Positions 26,154-51,509 of a stretch of 64,000 bases of DNA are shown here, one piece after another. The translations under genes and the position numbers were made by a program. The first letter of the stretch is position 1. The number at the start of each line of letters is the position of its first letter. The notes under the pieces were generated by a model that had not been told where the DNA came from, searched no databases, and worked only from the letters and a program-made list of their open reading frames with translations. Location: positions 4,867 to 68,866 of the forward strand of contig CAYZZC010000001.1 of NCBI GenBank assembly GCA_964482995.1, read 5' to 3'. Source of the stretch: an uncultured Candidatus Saccharibacteria bacterium. GTDB lineage: Bacteria > Patescibacteriota > Minisyncoccia > Phycocordibacterales > SBAW01.

Positions 26154-27059
26154 ATGGCAAATCGTCACTTATCAAGATCCGTAGTGCTCCAAACGCTCTT
26201 TGAGCAGGACATCCGCCAATGCACGAGCGAGATGAGCCGCGAGGCTCTGGTACGCAACGTTGCCGAGTTTGCACCTGCAGCGGGAGACCTGCCGTTTATG
26301 GAGGAGCTTTTGAAGGGCGCTTTGGCACGTAAAAGCGACCTCGATTTAGTGATTGAGAAAGCTGCGCCCGAGTGGCCGATCGAGCGTATCGCGCCGATCG
26401 ACCGCAATGTGCTGCGGCTCGGCCTCTATGAGCTCCTTTTCTCGGATAGGGAAAAGGTGCCTGCCAAGGTTGCTATCAACGAAGCTATTGAACTTGCAAA
26501 AAGTTTTGGCGGCGAGAACAGCGGCCGGTTTGTAAACGGCGTGCTCGGTGCAGTCTACAAAGAGCTCGGCGAGCCCGGCAAAGACGAAACAAGCAAGAAA
26601 AAGAAAGACGTTCCCTATGAAGATATGCCGCAAGAGCGGCTGGTGGGCGCAGTGGTCTACACTCGGCAAGGCAATGATGTGTACATTGCACTTGTGCATG
26701 ACATCTTTGGCCACTGGACGCTCTCTAAAGGCAAACTCACTCCTGAAGAAACCCCTGAAGATGGTGTAGTACGCAAAATAAAAGAAGAGATTGGGCTCAC
26801 AATAACACCCGAGCTTCGCCTAGGAGAAAACGAGTATGTTGCTAGCGACCCTGCTGCCGGCAAGAAACGAAAACATGTGATCTACTTCCTCGCACAATCG
26901 CCGTTTACTGAAGTGCAATTAGCTAAAAAGGGCGGGCTCGATGACGCAAAATGGTTTCGGCTTAAAGATGCGCTAGAACTTAATTTTTATGACGACATGC
27001 TTCCCGTTATCACCAAAGCAGTGCAGCAATTAACCTCTAATACCCCTACCAAAAAGTAG
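26154..27059 (+). CDS. nusB: NusB (transcription antitermination) fused to a C-terminal NUDIX hydrolase domain
   Basis: Residues 1 to about 150 are NusB-like (SRSVVLQTLFEQD...RFVNGVLGAVYKEL). Residues 165-301 carry a Nudix box (GHWTLSKGKLTPEETPEDGVVRKIKEEIGL). Single uninterrupted ORF. Confidence 0.75.
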   Translation: MANRHLSRSVVLQTLFEQDIRQCTSEMSREALVRNVAEFAPAAGDLPFMEELLKGALARKSDLDLVIEKAAPEWPIERIAPIDRNVLRLGLYELLFSDREKVPAKVAINEAIELAKSFGGENSGRFVNGVLGAVYKELGEPGKDETSKKKKDVPYEDMPQERLVGAVVYTRQGNDVYIALVHDIFGHWTLSKGKLTPEETPEDGVVRKIKEEIGLTITPELRLGENEYVASDPAAGKKRKHVIYFLAQSPFTEVQLAKKGGLDDAKWFRLKDALELNFYDDMLPVITKAVQQLTSNTPTKK

Positions 27060-33598: not shown

Positions 33599-36500
33599 AT
33601 GGACGAACTGAATTTTATTTCAGCAAAAGAGGCGGCTAAAATCCTGGGCTATGCTCCAGAGTATGTAGCGCACCTTTGCCGAAGCGGCCAACTCGCTGCA
33701 CAGAGGAAGGGAAATGCTTGGTCGATCAACAAGGTGTCCGTAGAGGCTTTCCAAGAACTGGTTAAGCAAGAACAAGAGCTACGCTCAAAGACACTTTCGC
33801 GCCAGCTTCGTAAAGAGAACAAAGAGAAAAAGGGTATCCCTTTTTTCTTTTCAAACAAATCACTTGTGTCTCGTGTTGCGCTGGGGGCCGCACTCTTTGT
33901 TATGTTTGCAGTTGGAGTGCAAGCAGTTGGTGTCGCTTCAAACAACAATGCTGGTATAACGGCAGCTCTCGGCCAGGTCGAGTCGCCTTTTTTTGGCGCC
34001 AATCCTTTTTCTCTCTTTTCAAATTTGTTTTCAAAATTCTTTGCACAAGCTCCTACAAAAATTACAGCTCCGGATACAAAACCTCTTCCCGTAGCATCTT
34101 CTACCGTAGTTACCAATAACATCAACAACACTACTACGACAAATAATAATACCTACAACACAAACAACACGTACACGTATACAACCGCAGGTGTCTCGGC
34201 AATCGAGTTTGATACAAAAATTAATGGTCTTAGGCAAGAAATATTCTCAAGTATAAACAGTGTGCAGGGGCCATACTCCTCAGGCGGAGTGACCAACAAT
34301 ATTGCTGCTTCGCAAAAGATAGACAAGCTCTCTGGCGTAACAATCAGTAATTCAACGGTGCACAGCCTTTCCGGCCTCACCGATGCCGATGTCCCCGACA
34401 CGATCACTGTCTCTCAATATTTGCCGCTTCTGGGCGGTACGGTCTCGGGCGACCTCACCATAACCGGCACTTGCACAGGGTGCGGTGGAGGCGGCAGCGG
34501 TGACAATGACTGGTCATATTTTAATAACTCCGGCGTGAGGCTTGCCACTACTACTAACCAAGTGCTCATCGGCGGCTCTGCAACCTCAACCTTTGCTAAA
34601 CTCCAAGTGGTTGGCGGCGCAGTGATCGACTTTGCAACAACTACGAGTTTTTTCAGCAGCACCTCCTCCTCGACAGAGTCATACACAACTACGGCGACAA
34701 TTAGCACTGCAAATATCGGGCTAGCAACCACGACACAATTTTTTGGCTCTAACCTTTCAGTGTGTCAGGGCGGTAATCTACTCACGTGGAATGGTGGCCT
34801 CTTTGGTTGTGCGGCAGACCAAACTGCAACAGGTGCTGCCAACCCGTTTACCTGGAGCAACAACTATGGCGTCATCTCTGCAGCAACCACCTCACCACTT
34901 TGGGCGCAGAACGGCCTCTTCGCCTCCTCGACCTCGCACTTCGCAAATGGTGACTTTGCGGGAACTCTTGGAGTAGGCACTTCAACACCCTTCGCACTCC
35001 TCTCGGTACACGCCACCTCCACCACCAACTTCGCAACACTCTTTGCCGTCTCTTCAACCTCTGCGGGTGGGGGATCTGATACCACACTGTTTGTTGTTAA
35101 CAAGAATGGCAATGTTGGGATTGGGACGAGCTCTCCAAGTTATCAGCTTACGCAAAAGTCGGCCGCGGCAGAAGAAAAATCTTCACTTGGCGCCGAGCTG
35201 CTTGATTCAACCAGTTGGACCTCAACCGGGTGGACAGGCGACTTTAATGTCGGTTTTACCAACACCGGAGGCAACACCAACAACCTTTCGCGCACCACCA
35301 CCACCTTAACTGGCGTCTACTACTACATTACATTCACTATATCAGGGATGACCACCGGCAGGCTCAATGTTTCATTAGGATACGCGACTACCACGGATGA
35401 TGCCGGAGGTTACTACCAAAATGGCTCTTACACTTTCGGCCCCAGCCCCACCGTCTCAAACGGGCCTATCCAATTTATCCCTAGCTCGGGGTTCGATGGC
35501 ACAGTCTCAGCCATTTCAATGAAATTGGTTTCTGCATATAACCCCACCTACGCCATCCTCGACTCGACCGGCGCCTCGACCATTGAAACTCGCTCCTCGA
35601 CCGCCTCGCTTTTCAACACATTTATAGGCGTTGGTGCAGGACGCCTCAACTACAATGGATCAATCAACACCGCCCTAGGCTACCAAGCGCTCTACAGCAA
35701 CACCACCGGCGTCGACAACATCGCCCTCGGCTACCGGGCGCTCTACAGCAATACCACCGGCACTGACAATGCAGGCATCGGCCCCCAGGCGCTCTACAGC
35801 AACACCACCGGCTATCGAAACACCGCAATCGGCTATCAAGCGCTTAATGCAAATACTGTCGGAGGCGAAAACACAAGCGTCGGCTTTTCCGCTCTCAAGA
35901 CAAATACTACTGGCGCAGCTAACACTGCCGTAGGAGAGAACGCTCTTTTAAGAAATACTACAGGCTCATCTAACACGGCTATTGGCCAACGAAGCCTCTA
36001 CAGCAACACCACCGGCACCAACAATGTAGCCAACGGCACTATAGCGCTCTACAGTAACACTACCGGCTCCAACAATACCGCCAGTGGTTATCAAACGCTC
36101 TATTACAACACCACCGGTTCCGGCAATGTGGCCAATGGTCTACAGGCGCTCTTCAACAACCTATCCGCTACTAATACCGTTGCTGTTGGGTACCGATCCG
36201 GCTACGGCCTGGGCGGGCGATACTACAACCTGGGCGGTACATATCTCGGGTATCAAGCAGGCTACGCTGCTGCAAACTCGTCCGACTACAACACCTTCCT
36301 CGGCTATCGGGCTGGTGAGAATGTTGCCACTGGCGCTGGCAATATAATCATCGGCGCCAATATTGCTGCTACCTCAAGCACTGCCACCAACTCGCTCAAC
36401 ATAGGCAACTTGCTCTATGGGACAGGCGTCTATTCATCCTCTGGCACTTCCCCCGCAACCTCTTCTGCTCCGGTAATTAACGGTATGCTTGGCGTAGCTT

Positions 36501-39500
36501 CTTCTTCGCCCTTCGCTAAATTCTCTATTCATGCAAACAATGGGGGCACTAACACCACGCTCTTTGCAATCGGTTCATCAACACAAACCTCTACCACGAC
36601 GCTCTTTAAAATCGACAACACGGGTTCATCGACACTCCTTGGCATCGCTTCCTCAACCGGCCTGATAGTCTCTGGTCTCAATGCAGCAAGTTGCGACCTC
36701 AAAGGTGACGTCAACGGTGCTATCTACTGCGGTACAGACGCCACAACTGCTGGAGCAGCGGCATTTACGTGGGAGGATAACTTTGCTCAGATCTCTGCGG
36801 CAACAACATCGGCAATCTGGGCAAAGAACGGCCTTTTTGCTTCTTCTACCTCACGCCTCTCCACCACGACGTTCATTGGCTCAGTCGGTATTGGCACCAC
36901 CACCCCCGCATCTCTCTTCTCTATCAACGGCGTCGCCAACTTCCAAACTGGCACCTCCACTATTTATGAAAACCTCAACGTCAGAGGCCAGCTCAAAGTA
37001 GGCAATGACTCTATCTATCTCAACGGCGCAGCTACCTCCACCTTTACTAAAGGCCTCGACATCGCTGCAGGTTGCTTCTCTATCGGAGGTACTTGTGTGG
37101 GAGGCAGTGGTTCATCTCCAGGCTACATACTCTCTTCTATATATTCAACCACCTCTCCCGGCACCACCACTATATCTGTCACTGGCTCTGCAGGCTCTGC
37201 CGCAAGCTTCTCTGCCGCCGTGCTCACGCTTCCATCTGATACAGCCTATTACGTTGTTGAAGTGTGGGGGGGTGGTGGAGGTGGAGGAGACGGAGGCGGT
37301 AACGGCGGTGGCGGTGGCGGTGGCGGATATTCAAAAGAAACTTTTACTACTACGGGTCAGCGGTATTACACTGTTGGTGCTGGTGGTGCTGGTGGTACGA
37401 CCGGATCCGGTTCATCAGGCGGTTCATCCTGTTTTGGTACAAATGCAATAGCGTGTGCCTCGCCCGAACTTCAGGCAACAGGAGGTAGTGGTGGGGGTGG
37501 TGGTGGCGGTGGAAATGGTGGCGCTGGAGGAACCGGTTCAGGAGGAAACGTTAACTTTGTTGGCGGAGCAGGAAGCGACGAGCTTTCAGAAGCGGTAGCA
37601 GCCGCGGACAATCATTCTGGTGTAGGCGGTGATGCTGCTGGAGGTGGTGGCGCAGGAGCAAAGGGTGTGTCTTCTAATGGGCAAGCCGGTGATGCCGGCA
37701 CTGCCCCTGGGGGTGGAGGTGGGGGCGGAGAAGATACGGACGGCACCTCAGGCGATGGTGACGGCGGAGCCGGCGGCTCAGGCGGTTTCATCATCTACGT
37801 CTACACCCCATCGGGCAACGTCGTCACAGGCACCATCAACTCCGGCACCGCAGGCCAAGTCACCTACTACGCCGCAGACGGCACTACCATCTCCGGCACC
37901 TCAACACTTTTCATTACACCAACCGGCAACGTCGGTGTCGGCTCCACCTCACCATTCTCCAAACTTTCTATCCACGCAAACAATGGCGAGACAAACACTA
38001 CGCTCTTCGCTATCGGTTCTTCAACCGCGTCGGCAACCTCCACACTCTTTATGGTCAACGCCCAAGGCAGCGTCGGCATCGGGACATCGACACTTAATGC
38101 AAAGTTTGTGGTATCAAGCTCTGGCTCTACTGCAAGTGTATTGCAGATTGATCGCTCGGGTGCAAGCACGCAAGCTAACCTTGAGTTTCTCTCTAATGGG
38201 GCGCGAAAATGGGCCATCTATAAAACCAACGCTTCAGAGAATTTGAGCATCTATAACTATACTATTTCTGCTGATGCACTCACTATCGCATCTACGAGCA
38301 ATAACATCGGCATCGGCACCTCCTCACCGTGGCGCAAACTTTCAGTAGAAGGTTCTTCTGACCTTGGTATCAACGCACTCGCTGGCTTCTTCACCGCCAC
38401 CACCTCTACCGCATCTGTATTTCCATACGCAAGTACGACGATGGTAACCGCAGCAACCGCCAGCTCCACCAACTTAATCGTCTCCTCAGCAGGCGGAGCA
38501 GCAGGCTGTGCAACCTTCTCCACCAACGGCACCATCTCAAACACCGGCACTGCCTGCGGTTCAGGGTCTGGCACCTTCTCATTCACCCCCACCACCAACT
38601 TTGGTGTCGACGTGAACTCCACTTCAACCCCTCTTTGGTTCACCCAAGGCCTCTTCGCCTCCTCAACCTCACGCCTCTCCACCACCACCTTCATTGGCTC
38701 AGTCGGTATTGGCACCACTACCCCAGGTTCACTCTTCTCTATCAACGGCGTCGCCAACTTCCAAACTGGCACCTCCACTCTCTACGAGAACCTCAACGTC
38801 AGAGGCCAGCTCAAAGTAGGCAATGACTCTATCTATCTCAACGGCGCAGCTACCTCCACCTTTACTAAAGGCCTCGACATCGCTGCAGGCTGCTTCTCTA
38901 TCGCAGGGACGTGTGTAGGGGGTAGCGGAAGCTCCGGTACTCTTGATTCAAAAGTTTTTGCAACAACGACCACAGGCACTACTTCTGTAATATTCACCGG
39001 TGCCGTTGACAGCGATCCTTCATTCTCTGCGGCAGTCCTTACTCTTCCATCGAATACTGCATTTTATGTGGTTGAGGTGTGGTCTGGCGGCGGTGGTGGC
39101 GGTGGTGACCCTGGTGGCAGTAACGGTGGCGGAGGCGGTGGCGGAGGCGGATATTCACGCGAAACATTCACTACAATTGGCCAGCGATATTACACTGTAG
39201 GCTCTGGCGGTCTAGGCAACACAGGCTCTGGCGCAGGAACTGCTGGCGGTTCATCCTGCTTCGGCACCAATTCAACTGCTTGCACTTCACCAGAGCTTTC
39301 AGCTACAGGAGGAAATGGAAGTAGTGCTGGCGGCGGTGGCGGCGCAGGTGGGGTTGGGTCTGACGGTAATGTGAATTTGACTGGACAAGAAGGAGTAAGT
39401 GGCTCCGCCGCCAGCGGTGATGGTGGAACCGGAGCATTTGGTGGGGTGGGAGGCGCGGGAGGAGACAGCGGAGCCACTGGTATCGTTCCAGGCGGCGGCG

Positions 39501-42049
39501 GCGGCGGAGAAATTGACGCTGGCAGCGGCAATGGCGGCAATGGCGCAGCTGGCCAAATTGTCATCACCGTATACACCCAAGGTTCTGCACTCTCAAGCGG
39601 CACCATCAACACCGGCACCGCAGGCCAACTCGCCTACTTTGCCGCAGACGGCACCACAGTCTCCGGCACCTCAACACTTTTCATTACACCAACCGGCAAT
39701 GTCGGTGTCGGAACAACATCGCCATATGCTCTCCTCTCTGTAAACGCAGCATCTACTTCCGTATTACAGACCCTCTTTGCCATCGGCTCCTCAACCAACA
39801 ATGGAGCAACCTCAACACTCTTTGTAGTCAACGCCAACGGCAGGGTGGGGATCGGGACAACGAGCCCAGCGAATCTCCTAGCATTGGCGGCAACTGCTTC
39901 GACAGCACTGTCACTCGACTTTACTGACAATACGAGTTTGTCGCAGATTCTTTTCAATCAGTCGGGTACAAACTATGGTTTTATAAACCAACTAGGATCA
40001 AGTTTTTCAGATGCTACGCGTGCGGGGAATCTTGAGATAGGCTCAACACTTGGCGCGGGAGGAGTCGCATTTCGAACTGGTGGTGTCCAGCGCATGCTTA
40101 TAAATTCTTCGGGCAACGTCGGTGTCGGCTCCACCACTCCATATGCTCTCCTCTCTCTCAACGCAGCCTCAACCTCAGTACTCACCACCCTCTTTGCGAT
40201 CGGTTCCTCAACCAACAACGGCGCAACCTCGACACTCTTTTCTATCTCAAACACGGGCTCTACCACTGCCTCAAACGGTTTCAATATCACCAGCGGTTGC
40301 TACGCCATAAACGGCGCGTGTATTGGCTACACGGTAAAGCTCGCGGCGATCTACGCGACATCAAGCTCTGGCACCACAACCGTTGCCTTTACCGGAGCCG
40401 CAGGCAGCGCGCCGAGTTTTTCTGCGGCCGCGCTCACGCTTCCTAAAAATACTTCGTACTATGTCGTTGAGGTGTGGGGAGGTGGCGGCAATGGTGGTAA
40501 TACCTCAAACAACAATACTAATAAAACCGGCGGTACCACTTGCTACAGCAACAACGCTGTCGCTTGCGCATCTGTCTTGCTCCAAGCTACAGGCGGTGCC
40601 GGCGGTACAGATGCGCAGATAAATGGTATCGGTGGTGCTGGCGGTGTTGGGTCAGGGGGTGATGTAAATATGATTGGCGAAGGGGGTGGTAATGGTTTTT
40701 TTGGTGTTAATGCTGGTTCCGCCGATGTAAATTCATTGGGAGGAAAAGGAGGTTCTGCGGCTGGAGGTGGCGGAGTCGGAGGCGCTGGTGGTACAGGAAA
40801 CCCAGCCGCCGGTGCCGATGGTAAGGCTTTTGGCGGCGGCGGCGGCGGCGATGGCGATAGCACCGCTGCCAGTGGTGTAGGAGGCGGTGGTGGCGGCGGC
40901 GGCGGGTATTCTAAAAAACTTATTTCCAATAGCGCTGCAGCAACCTTTACTATTGGTGCTCCTATCGGTGCCAATGTCGGTGCCTCCAACGGTGGTGCGG
41001 GAGGTGTTGTCATCACCATATACGCCACCTCCTCTGCCAACGCGGCGGGCAACGACTACGCAGAAATGTTCCCCGTGAGCAACCCTATTATCGGGGCGGG
41101 GGATATTGTTGCTGTCGACACTGGCATGCCAGTTTCAATGAAGCTGGCGCGGGCAGGCGACACCGCGCTTGCGGGCGTTATCTCGACTGAGCCGGGGCAG
41201 GTGTTGGGGGACATCAATGCAAGCGGCATGCGCCCGGTCGCGCTTTCTGGCCGCGTGCCAGCAAAAGTAAATCTTGAGGGCGGCGAAATCAAAATTGGTG
41301 ACCGCATCGCGCTCTCGTCTCTGCCAGGTGTCGGCAAGAAGGCGAATGCGTTTGAAGACTCAGTTGGTATCGCGATTGAAAACTATACTGTCAATTCGAC
41401 CTCCGGCACCGTGATGGTGTTCCTCGATTTGCAACGGGGGATCGATGTAGAGGCGGTCGGCCAGGTGCTCCTCGGGCTTCCAGTTGTAACTATCAGCACC
41501 AGCACGAGCCCGGTAGTTACTGTCTCGGAAACTACGAGCACCAGCACAGCGACGACCACAGAAACAATTTCAACCACCACTCCTTCCTCCGCATCATCTA
41601 CGCCGCCATATGTATTTGCGACGAGCTTCCTCACGCAGCTTGCGCATATATTTACCAGTTGGTTTGCAAGCGCGGGTAACGGGATCGCAGATTTATTTGC
41701 AACCACTATTCATGCTGAAACAATCTATGCAAAGTCGGTACACACCGAGGAGTTGTGTGTGGGGAGTGTCTGTGTGTCACAGGAGCAGTTTATGTCGTTG
41801 GTGCAAGCGGGCGGCATTAGTACCAGCACAAGCGCGCCCACTCCGCCACCTCCTACTGAGCCAACATCAACCCCGCCTGAGCCCGCACCAGAGGCCGCCA
41901 CAACCACACCTATAATAGAAGGGTCGACCCCAACAGAACCAACTTCTGAACCAGCTCTGCCGGTAGAAACTTCCTCCGAGCAGCCTATTATGCCTGCAGA
42001 TATACCTACAGAGCCGCCAGCACCCGTTGTTGAGCAAGCACCATTATAA
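33599..42049 (+). CDS. Giant (2816 aa) membrane-anchored surface protein with N-terminal cytoplasmic HTH, one TM helix and modular repetitive ectodomain
   Basis: Uninterrupted 8451-nt ORF. Residues 1-60 form an excisionase/MerR-like HTH (ISAKEAAKILGYAPEYVAHLCRSGQLAAQRKGNAWSINKVSVEAF), and residues 90-113 a TM helix. Then Ser/Thr/Asn/Gly-rich beta-solenoid-like regions with about 20 copies of a 14-residue NTAxGxxALxxNTTG repeat. Three large modules each have a poly-Gly block (VEVWGGGGGGG...GGYS.ETFTT.GQRYYTVG). A conserved C-terminal domain (DYAEMFPV...GDIVAVDTG) is followed by a Pro/Thr-rich tail. Confidence 0.8.
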   Translation: MDELNFISAKEAAKILGYAPEYVAHLCRSGQLAAQRKGNAWSINKVSVEAFQELVKQEQELRSKTLSRQLRKENKEKKGIPFFFSNKSLVSRVALGAALFVMFAVGVQAVGVASNNNAGITAALGQVESPFFGANPFSLFSNLFSKFFAQAPTKITAPDTKPLPVASSTVVTNNINNTTTTNNNTYNTNNTYTYTTAGVSAIEFDTKINGLRQEIFSSINSVQGPYSSGGVTNNIAASQKIDKLSGVTISNSTVHSLSGLTDADVPDTITVSQYLPLLGGTVSGDLTITGTCTGCGGGGSGDNDWSYFNNSGVRLATTTNQVLIGGSATSTFAKLQVVGGAVIDFATTTSFFSSTSSSTESYTTTATISTANIGLATTTQFFGSNLSVCQGGNLLTWNGGLFGCAADQTATGAANPFTWSNNYGVISAATTSPLWAQNGLFASSTSHFANGDFAGTLGVGTSTPFALLSVHATSTTNFATLFAVSSTSAGGGSDTTLFVVNKNGNVGIGTSSPSYQLTQKSAAAEEKSSLGAELLDSTSWTSTGWTGDFNVGFTNTGGNTNNLSRTTTTLTGVYYYITFTISGMTTGRLNVSLGYATTTDDAGGYYQNGSYTFGPSPTVSNGPIQFIPSSGFDGTVSAISMKLVSAYNPTYAILDSTGASTIETRSSTASLFNTFIGVGAGRLNYNGSINTALGYQALYSNTTGVDNIALGYRALYSNTTGTDNAGIGPQALYSNTTGYRNTAIGYQALNANTVGGENTSVGFSALKTNTTGAANTAVGENALLRNTTGSSNTAIGQRSLYSNTTGTNNVANGTIALYSNTTGSNNTASGYQTLYYNTTGSGNVANGLQALFNNLSATNTVAVGYRSGYGLGGRYYNLGGTYLGYQAGYAAANSSDYNTFLGYRAGENVATGAGNIIIGANIAATSSTATNSLNIGNLLYGTGVYSSSGTSPATSSAPVINGMLGVASSSPFAKFSIHANNGGTNTTLFAIGSSTQTSTTTLFKIDNTGSSTLLGIASSTGLIVSGLNAASCDLKGDVNGAIYCGTDATTAGAAAFTWEDNFAQISAATTSAIWAKNGLFASSTSRLSTTTFIGSVGIGTTTPASLFSINGVANFQTGTSTIYENLNVRGQLKVGNDSIYLNGAATSTFTKGLDIAAGCFSIGGTCVGGSGSSPGYILSSIYSTTSPGTTTISVTGSAGSAASFSAAVLTLPSDTAYYVVEVWGGGGGGGDGGGNGGGGGGGGYSKETFTTTGQRYYTVGAGGAGGTTGSGSSGGSSCFGTNAIACASPELQATGGSGGGGGGGGNGGAGGTGSGGNVNFVGGAGSDELSEAVAAADNHSGVGGDAAGGGGAGAKGVSSNGQAGDAGTAPGGGGGGGEDTDGTSGDGDGGAGGSGGFIIYVYTPSGNVVTGTINSGTAGQVTYYAADGTTISGTSTLFITPTGNVGVGSTSPFSKLSIHANNGETNTTLFAIGSSTASATSTLFMVNAQGSVGIGTSTLNAKFVVSSSGSTASVLQIDRSGASTQANLEFLSNGARKWAIYKTNASENLSIYNYTISADALTIASTSNNIGIGTSSPWRKLSVEGSSDLGINALAGFFTATTSTASVFPYASTTMVTAATASSTNLIVSSAGGAAGCATFSTNGTISNTGTACGSGSGTFSFTPTTNFGVDVNSTSTPLWFTQGLFASSTSRLSTTTFIGSVGIGTTTPGSLFSINGVANFQTGTSTLYENLNVRGQLKVGNDSIYLNGAATSTFTKGLDIAAGCFSIAGTCVGGSGSSGTLDSKVFATTTTGTTSVIFTGAVDSDPSFSAAVLTLPSNTAFYVVEVWSGGGGGGGDPGGSNGGGGGGGGGYSRETFTTIGQRYYTVGSGGLGNTGSGAGTAGGSSCFGTNSTACTSPELSATGGNGSSAGGGGGAGGVGSDGNVNLTGQEGVSGSAASGDGGTGAFGGVGGAGGDSGATGIVPGGGGGGEIDAGSGNGGNGAAGQIVITVYTQGSALSSGTINTGTAGQLAYFAADGTTVSGTSTLFITPTGNVGVGTTSPYALLSVNAASTSVLQTLFAIGSSTNNGATSTLFVVNANGRVGIGTTSPANLLALAATASTALSLDFTDNTSLSQILFNQSGTNYGFINQLGSSFSDATRAGNLEIGSTLGAGGVAFRTGGVQRMLINSSGNVGVGSTTPYALLSLNAASTSVLTTLFAIGSSTNNGATSTLFSISNTGSTTASNGFNITSGCYAINGACIGYTVKLAAIYATSSSGTTTVAFTGAAGSAPSFSAAALTLPKNTSYYVVEVWGGGGNGGNTSNNNTNKTGGTTCYSNNAVACASVLLQATGGAGGTDAQINGIGGAGGVGSGGDVNMIGEGGGNGFFGVNAGSADVNSLGGKGGSAAGGGGVGGAGGTGNPAAGADGKAFGGGGGGDGDSTAASGVGGGGGGGGGYSKKLISNSAAATFTIGAPIGANVGASNGGAGGVVITIYATSSANAAGNDYAEMFPVSNPIIGAGDIVAVDTGMPVSMKLARAGDTALAGVISTEPGQVLGDINASGMRPVALSGRVPAKVNLEGGEIKIGDRIALSSLPGVGKKANAFEDSVGIAIENYTVNSTSGTVMVFLDLQRGIDVEAVGQVLLGLPVVTISTSTSPVVTVSETTSTSTATTTETISTTTPSSASSTPPYVFATSFLTQLAHIFTSWFASAGNGIADLFATTIHAETIYAKSVHTEELCVGSVCVSQEQFMSLVQAGGISTSTSAPTPPPPTEPTSTPPEPAPEAATTTPIIEGSTPTEPTSEPALPVETSSEQPIMPADIPTEPPAPVVEQAPL

Positions 42050-44657: not shown

Positions 44658-51509
<6,852 letters not shown>

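Follow-up and report, generated by a model that had tools for sequence, protein, structure and literature searches.

The locus considered here raises the question of how short stretches of two modules within one gene come to be nearly identical in DNA sequence when the module parts around them have diverged far. The gene is a giant open reading frame (ORF) in a 64-kb window of contig CAYZZC010000001.1 from an uncultured Candidatus Saccharibacteria bacterium (the window being the whole stretch of 64,000 nucleotides that was analysed), and its product is identical to database protein P0001. Modules 2 and 3 of this protein each combine a stalk with a Gly-rich head domain, called G1 in module 2 and G2 in module 3; a third, diverged Gly-rich domain, G3, follows toward the C-terminus. 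Our best explanation of the whole, which we consider probable, is that the protein is a membrane-anchored fibre in which an old module duplication was followed by gene conversion of stalk stretches.

Near-identical tracts in a tandem duplication

Protein self-comparison by BLASTP, carried out in chunks, gives colinear matches between amino acids ~1017-1587 and ~1621-2191 with identity declining from 78% to 43%, and in a global protein alignment the blocks of modules 2 and 3, aa ~1060-1500 and ~1666-2090, are adjacent, in the same order, and colinear over about 440-570 amino acids. Because these blocks are colinear and adjacent, and because the offsets between the repeated DNA stretches (1818 and 1770 nt, equal to 606 and 590 codons) are both multiples of 3, modules 2 and 3 do represent a tandem duplication in frame, as a first-pass annotation of this DNA had proposed from a consistent offset of about 1.8 kb; the 48-nt gap between the two offsets comes from insertions and deletions in the Gly-rich stretch. 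The duplication is old, since substitution at synonymous sites has reached saturation between the copies and the heads stand at ~62% amino acid identity.

Two pairs of near-identical tracts lie within the duplicated modules (Table 1). The copies of tract 1 (repeat family D3) are 281 nt long and 91% identical, and base-by-base comparison shows that their core differs at 12 of 238 nt (95% identity) and includes 101 bp without a mismatch at 36971-37071; the copies of tract 2 (family D4) are 150 nt long and 83% identical, and their core differs at 8 of 113 nt (93% identity), the longest perfect run being 40 bp. Tract 1 accounts for the spacing of 1818 and tract 2 for that of 1770. The first-pass annotation had matched 36830-37118 to 38648-38936 at about 90% identity, and 37840-37940 to 39610-39710; both matches hold with small adjustments to their limits, and both were reproduced independently by a sliding-window self-comparison and by blastn, at identities well above 70%. 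A third pair of tracts, absent from that annotation, is 82% identical at an offset of 417, and weaker in-register repeat families are also present with spacings of 1824 and 1827. Neither the sliding-window self-comparison nor blastn found copies of the tracts elsewhere in the 64-kb window, for which reason a shared mobile or repeated element was rejected as their source.

Tract 1 ends at residue 1162, ~12 residues ahead of the confidently predicted head fold (start ~aa 1174), and tract 2 starts at residue 1411, ~6 residues past the end of that fold (~aa 1405), so that the homogenised DNA brackets the diverging head domain.

Synonymous (dS) and nonsynonymous (dN) divergence, calculated by the Nei-Gojobori method on the codon alignment of modules 2 and 3, is uneven along the modules. 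Specifically, i) dS is 0.18 and dN 0.012 in tract 1 (aa 1084-1162); ii) the 223 codons between tracts 1 and 2 are synonymously saturated, with a proportion of synonymous differences (pS) of 0.76 and dN of 0.30; iii) dS is 0.14 and dN 0.066 in tract 2 (aa 1411-1447); iv) dS is 0.85 and dN 0.405 over aa 1448-1497; and v) both outer flanks are synonymously saturated with dN of 0.94-1.0. Saturated pS values range from 0.74 to 0.82. Taken with windowed identity along the same alignment, these values agree with the earlier statement that the surrounding module parts are far more diverged.

Amino acid identity between the tracts is still about 70%, and in windows as high as 0.87. Windows of identical, fourfold-type codons have third-position identities of 0.75-1.0 within tract 1 and 0.07-0.44 between the tracts; from the codon usage of this gene, 0.30 would be expected at saturation. 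Among 224 fourfold-type sites in identical codons, 30 synonymous matches occur in a row, longer than the maximum of 20 in 2,000 shuffles; the maximum-segment score, also 30, compares with a shuffle maximum of 22 (n=20,000, p<5e-5). Selection on the protein would not generate such unevenness because it leaves synonymous sites free, and the data are read most simply as an old duplication onto which younger gene-conversion tracts were overlaid. The first-pass annotation had taken the patchy identity as a sign of ongoing gene conversion: conversion is favoured by the contrast between dS of 0.18 and 0.14 in the tracts and saturated pS around them, but "ongoing" goes further than the data, mismatches of 5-9% being already present within the tracts. 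The 101-bp perfect core of tract 1 suggests a younger event. At the protein level the copies of tract 1 are 97% identical within this gene, versus at most 70% in distant homologues.

Related giant genes

The 120 homologues listed are giant proteins, and those with a source name are nearly all from Patescibacteria or Parcubacteria. No relative of the same species or genus was found in the protein database or in the genome, metagenome, and viral collections, and P0001 is a singleton: the genome-contig scan gave only a distant Saccharibacteria locus at 33% identity, and the nearest relatives in the metagenome and viral scans reach about 66-75% amino acid identity over short segments only. Between 1 and 3 Gly domains occur per homologue. 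In P0062 and P0065 the Gly-domain copies pair by position, unlike G1, G2, and G3, which are mutual best partners and so point to a lineage-specific expansion.

Intragenic repeats of at least 100 nt, with 80-100% identity and 0.7-3.7 kb spacing, occur in 8 of 9 related loci (for example, 300 nt at 100% identity and a spacing of 3441 in L015, and 300 nt at 98% and a spacing of 2178 in L019); the pattern is thus a family trait rather than a peculiarity of this gene. In the gene of P0024 (locus L002), three copies of a 291-nt stalk segment recur at ~1.2-kb spacing with a 122-bp perfect tract, and the cargo domains that the copies flank are of three different kinds, two of them from different Gly-domain subfamilies. 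No intragenic DNA repeats of 60 nt or more were found in L003, unlike most relatives; this locus (the P0020 gene, 1-7047, from Candidatus Kaiserbacteria) encodes three Gly domains, and Hint/intein-splicing Pfam matches lie inside the giant protein.

P0002, the closest relative, has only its N-terminal 480 and C-terminal 300 amino acids in common with the protein studied here; it is without Gly domains, and its middle is entirely different. P0024 (2733 aa) and P0002 (4899 aa) are both encoded immediately upstream of gap-rpiB-rpe-transketolase, and can be viewed as positional counterparts in different lineages with a nearly two-fold difference in length. The plasticity seen across the homologues, with 1-3 Gly domains and different middles, is on an evolutionary scale only.

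Conversion weighed against constraint and artefact

The account that we favour would be as follows: i) the fibre has an N-terminal helix-turn-helix (HTH) domain and transmembrane helix, stalk segments alternating with "cargo" domains, and a phi29-gp12-like C-terminal assembly domain; ii) in this lineage a tandem duplication doubled a module of about 606 codons made up of stalk and head; iii) later non-reciprocal gene conversion between the copies re-homogenised two short stalk stretches flanking the head (dS 0.14-0.18); iv) a third stretch, of older date, lies further downstream; and v) strong protein conservation of the stalks probably keeps DNA identity sufficient to seed repeated conversion, whereby stalks would evolve in concert and heads diverge. 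The 101-bp and 40-bp perfect in-frame runs could also support unequal crossing-over, with loss or gain of a 606- or 590-codon module; length variation between present-day cells or strains, which the first-pass annotation ascribed to RecA-mediated expansion or contraction, would be plausible. A recA gene was not found among the window ORFs scanned.

Several points weigh against this account. The tract cores hold 5-7% mismatches, so the latest events are not very recent; conversion is deduced from one sequence, and variation in copy number is putative; the window comes from a metagenome-type assembly, in which a local chimera of strain variants is formally possible; the stalks flanking the head were modelled as a monomer at a predicted local distance difference test score (pLDDT) below 35; and a trimeric stalk rests on analogy, on a weak sequence match (E 0.017), and on a C-terminal fold match (E 3.7e-4, pLDDT 66).

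We think it unlikely that the homogenised stalks serve as recombination handles for head cassettes, by which heads could be exchanged, dropped, or acquired inside this gene, from one paralogous giant gene to another, or through recombination with phage DNA. Such a role would be compatible with the positions of the tracts, which approach the head fold to within ~6-12 residues on either side, with the near-identical stalk DNA that flanks three different cargo domains in L002, and with the finding that P0002 shares only the N- and C-terminal frames. If true, an episymbiotic Patescibacteria cell would possess a chromosomal, phage-like fibre able to switch host range.

It is quite improbable that no conversion took place and that the near-identical stretches are simply the module parts under the strongest purifying selection, acting on protein or on mRNA. 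Tract 1 does have a dN/dS of about 0.07, and its protein is among the best-conserved stalk segments in the homologues (up to 70% identity); yet purifying selection would have to explain a run of 30 synonymous matches that gives way to saturation where amino acids are still 70-87% identical. The L002 gene offers a telling case, in which the homologous segment "SLFAINGVANFKTGTSTLY..." keeps its amino acids despite many synonymous changes and the adjacent stalk stretch is perfectly identical over 122 bp. Nor was any sign of a nucleotide-level function seen (no scan for RNA families or promoters was made), and the confinement of the tracts to these modules also speaks against it.

An assembly artefact, in which short-read metagenome data were collapsed or repeats or strain variants were chimerically joined so as to create false similarity or a false module count, is very improbable. 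The sequence apparently does come from a metagenome-assembled contig (P0001 is a single NCBI record, on a 124-kb contig), and perfect repeats of 101 bp are able to confuse de Bruijn assemblers; but the ORF is intact over 8.4 kb, the sequence between the tracts sets the modules clearly apart (pS 0.76), so that they are not a collapsed repeat, similarity decays gradually at the tract edges through clustered mismatches, and the same pattern recurs in at least 8 related loci assembled independently in different projects.

Diversity-generating retroelements (DGRs) are common in bacteria of the candidate phyla radiation, where they target surface or receptor-binding proteins. That the tracts are repeats of such a dedicated system (DGR template and variable repeats, or programmed cassette switching) is scarcely credible, for although they bracket a domain of receptor-binding type, no reverse transcriptase or recombinase turned up in the scanned ORFs of the window, the mismatches in tract 1 are of mixed types rather than adenine-specific (of the 12, A stands at 3 in one copy and at 2 in the other), the variable part is the head between the repeats and not inside them, and both copies are in frame within one gene; a DGR target with a template/variable repeat pair was rejected on the lack of a reverse transcriptase and the mixed mismatches. 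Gene conversion upon an old duplication thus remains the reading that we prefer.

Architecture and comparison with known systems

From its sequence and from structure prediction, the product of the giant ORF reads as a chromosomal, membrane-anchored surface fibre resembling a phage tail fibre. A search of the PHROGs collection returned tail-fibre and virion-structural matches for the protein; the stalk tracts had no match in Pfam. Trimeric assembly would follow by analogy with such fibres, and we infer a role in attachment to a host or partner cell. The features of the gene are collected in Table 1.

Table 1. Features of the giant gene, in positions of the 64-kb window
Feature	Position	Strand	Residues	Basis
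Giant ORF, single and unbroken	33599..42049	+	2816 aa	ORF list and translation
HTH_17 domain, N-terminal, presumed cytoplasmic	33617..33757	+	7-53	Pfam PF12728, E 2e-6, 28.4 bits (cutoff 27)
Hydrophobic transmembrane or signal-anchor segment	33863..33937	+	89-113	Kyte-Doolittle
Module 1 start anchor "GLFASSTS...", a motif repeated at the starts of modules 2 and 3	34913..34942	+		Repeat family D8
51-nt (17-aa) repeat array "NTAxGYQALYSNTTG", about 10 tandem units, in module 1	35635..36160	+		Repeat family D2
Tract 1 copy A, module 2 stalk, just N-terminal of G1 (core 36848-37085)	36830..37110	+		Repeat search, family D3
Head domain G1, Gly_rich_2, predicted TNF-like and glycine-rich fold	37139..37816	+	1181-1406	Pfam PF21722, 37.8 bits
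Tract 2 copy A, stalk just C-terminal of G1 (core 37829-37941)	37829..37978	+		Repeat search, family D4
Tract 1 copy B, module 3 stalk	38648..38928	+		Repeat search, base-by-base comparison, blastn
Head domain G2, Gly_rich_2	38954..39586	+	1786-1996	Pfam PF21722, 37.3 bits
Tract 2 copy B	39599..39748	+		Repeat search, base-by-base comparison, blastn
Tract 3 copy A, module 3 stalk element	39695..39823	+		Repeat search, blastn
Tract 3 copy B, stalk element just before G3	40112..40240	+		Repeat search, blastn
Head domain G3, diverged Gly-rich domain	40349..41035	+	2251-2479	Hidden Markov models
C-terminal "NDYAEMFPV" domain, phi29 gp12 autochaperone-like by prediction	41018..41518	+	~2474-2640	AlphaFold2 (AF2) model, structural match

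The putative anchor is the sole region of the whole protein in which a 19-aa window has a mean Kyte-Doolittle value above 1.6. An excisionase-type HTH_17 domain thus precedes a lone transmembrane helix on a giant extracellular protein (33617-33937, +), and at least 12 giant homologues carry the same annotation (P0009, P0025, P0036, P0052, P0073, P0075, P0076, P0088, P0097, P0102, P0105, and P0107); the role of a domain of DNA-binding type on a surface fibre is unexplained. Module 1 contains a more distant copy of the module start: family D8 has 73-87% identity at spacings of 1917 and 1818, and protein self-BLASTP aligns aa 308-480 with aa 945-1117 at 37% identity. This start copy spans aa 308-587, and the module carries a different cargo, the 17-aa repeat array, which PHROGs relates to virion structural and tail spike proteins with E values from 4.5e-39 to 2e-24.

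Both G1 and G2 alone exceed the gathering threshold for Gly_rich_2 (PF21722, 24.3 bits), and the whole protein scores 43.5 bits; a literature search on PF21722/Gly_rich_2 found no paper. G3 alone has no Pfam match at E<=1, and was matched in two pieces by models built from G1-G3 and then iterated on family matches, a partly circular procedure and not an independent identification. Amino acid identity is 62% between G1 and G2, and 54% between G3 and either of them. An AF2 monomer model of aa 1078-1500, for which 12 module copies were used, reaches good confidence in the head alone (aa ~1174-1405, pLDDT 70-92), and this head matches the cyanophage Pam3 fibre (7ypx_A) in Foldseek with E 5e-7, probability 1.00, TM-score 0.60, and a root-mean-square deviation of 3.4 A over 247 columns; it also matches the Bxb1 tail-tip protein 9d93_Qa (E 5e-7), and more weakly the TNF-like/glycine-rich domain of ALK/LTK. 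Judged by this model, the three heads would be domains of receptor-binding type.

The first-pass annotation had placed a partial third module near 40350. Its start was well chosen (aa 2251, nt 40349); the region is better read, from comparison with homologues, as a conserved terminal cassette made up of a Gly-rich domain and, after it, the "NDYAEMFPV" C-terminal domain; this cassette stands at the end of 7 homologues and is internally rearranged in the copy of this gene. In G3 the element consisting of "GGGGGGGYSK" and a beta-strand is near the C-terminal end (40883-40966), whereas in G1 and G2 it comes directly after the "VEVWGGGG" strand, an arrangement resembling circular permutation of the head domain. 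The "NDYAEMFPV" motif is present in 18 other homologues, mostly at or near the C-terminus. The C-terminal domain has no Pfam match (Peptidase_G2 included), and a sequence search of the PDB was empty; the AF2 model (pLDDT 66) best matches the phi29 gp12 fragment 3gqh_A (E 3.7e-4, TM-score 0.53), followed by 3suc (E 8.5e-4). Similar phi29-gp12-like domains, with the motif "D[LY]AE[NM][YF]P", are internal in P0017 (aa 1701 and 2675), P0026 (aa 755), and P0071 (aa 1611), and in P0026 the domain is directly followed by the module-start motif "...FTPGTNFGVNVNSTSTPINFTQGLFASSTS"; these internal positions hint at polyprotein-like fibres or fused genes.

The neighbouring genes are housekeeping genes (SMC, RNase R, S16, KhpA, TrmD, a fused rpoBC, DnaG, sigma-70, GyrB, and DnaE). 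RpoB and RpoC are joined in one ORF of 2283 aa (44658-51509, +), with Rpb2 domains at aa 19-1047 and Rpb1 domains at aa 1066-2162; a database search with the junction returned many short proteins with both Rpb2_7 and Rpb1_1, one named Patescibacteria and one "subunit beta-beta'", so that the fusion is not unique to the source genome. At 26154-27056 (+), a further single ORF carries two domains, NusB at aa 7-136 and a NUDIX hydrolase at aa 163-285.

Little is understood of the means by which ultrasmall episymbiotic bacteria recognise their hosts and attach to them (PMC12206443); suspicion usually falls on very large surface proteins (PMC13059738). The present gene would be an instance of one giant Patescibacteria surface protein built of phage-fibre parts, with three Gly-rich heads of receptor-binding type, a stalk, and a tailspike-type C-terminal assembly domain, and what appear to be DNA signatures of concerted evolution in the gene could allow the number or identity of its heads to change. 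Confirmation in populations would point toward a simple recombinational route to altered attachment specificity.

Among known fibres, phi29 gp12 (3gqh, 3suc) has a C-terminal domain that drives trimer assembly in phi29 and is then cleaved off. The likeness here is one of predicted structure, and the domain in the giant protein, unlike that of gp12, precedes a Thr/Pro-rich tail of ~170 aa. With the Pam3 tail fibre gp24 (PDB 7ypx) the modules appear to share the head fold and the Gly_rich_2 signature; in Pam3 this domain binds the receptor at the tip of the fibre, its Gly stem being conserved and its variable distal loops forming a hypervariable tip (PMC9608196). It occurs once in Pam3, at the tip of a 280-aa virion fibre, but three times in the chromosomal 2816-aa protein, and no separate chaperone gene was identified beside the giant gene.

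The mosaic adhesive trimer (MAT) fibres of Bdellovibrio bacteriovorus (Bd2133, PDB 8ond; PMC10769870) are likewise cell-encoded fibres that resemble phage tail fibres, mosaic and with exchangeable tips, and Bdellovibrio, like the bearer of the giant fibre, is a bacterium living on other bacteria. The stalk motif "...GNVGIGTxxPxxKL..." aligns weakly with Bd2133 (8ond; E 0.017). MATs have a signal peptide, a conserved N-terminal beta domain of ~130 aa, a length of about 1000 aa, and S74 or other tips (PMC10769870). The giant protein falls outside this family on the features compared, for its N-terminus consists of HTH_17 and a transmembrane helix and it has no Peptidase_S74 match (the MAT N-terminal beta domain was not searched for); it differs further in its predicted phi29-gp12-like C-terminal domain and internal Gly-rich heads.

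At the DNA level the nearest parallels are of another kind. The streptococcal alpha C/Rib proteins, staphylococcal SasG/Aap, and Bap/Esp, as generally known, share with the giant gene large in-frame tandem modules, homogenisation of DNA between modules, and identical stretches that are a potential substrate for RecA-dependent module gain or loss. The giant gene differs from them in that i) it has only two or three modules, which are long (about 606 codons) and mostly diverged; ii) homogenisation is found in short flanking tracts and not in whole repeats; and iii) its modules appear to be phage-fibre-like rather than of Ig, G5, or Rib folds. Concerted evolution of repeats is well known in large surface-protein genes of bacteria and in phage fibres, and the case described here is real but fairly ordinary; the more interesting by-product is an architecture in which predicted receptor-binding heads of phage-fibre type are set between stalk flanks that would be competent for recombination.

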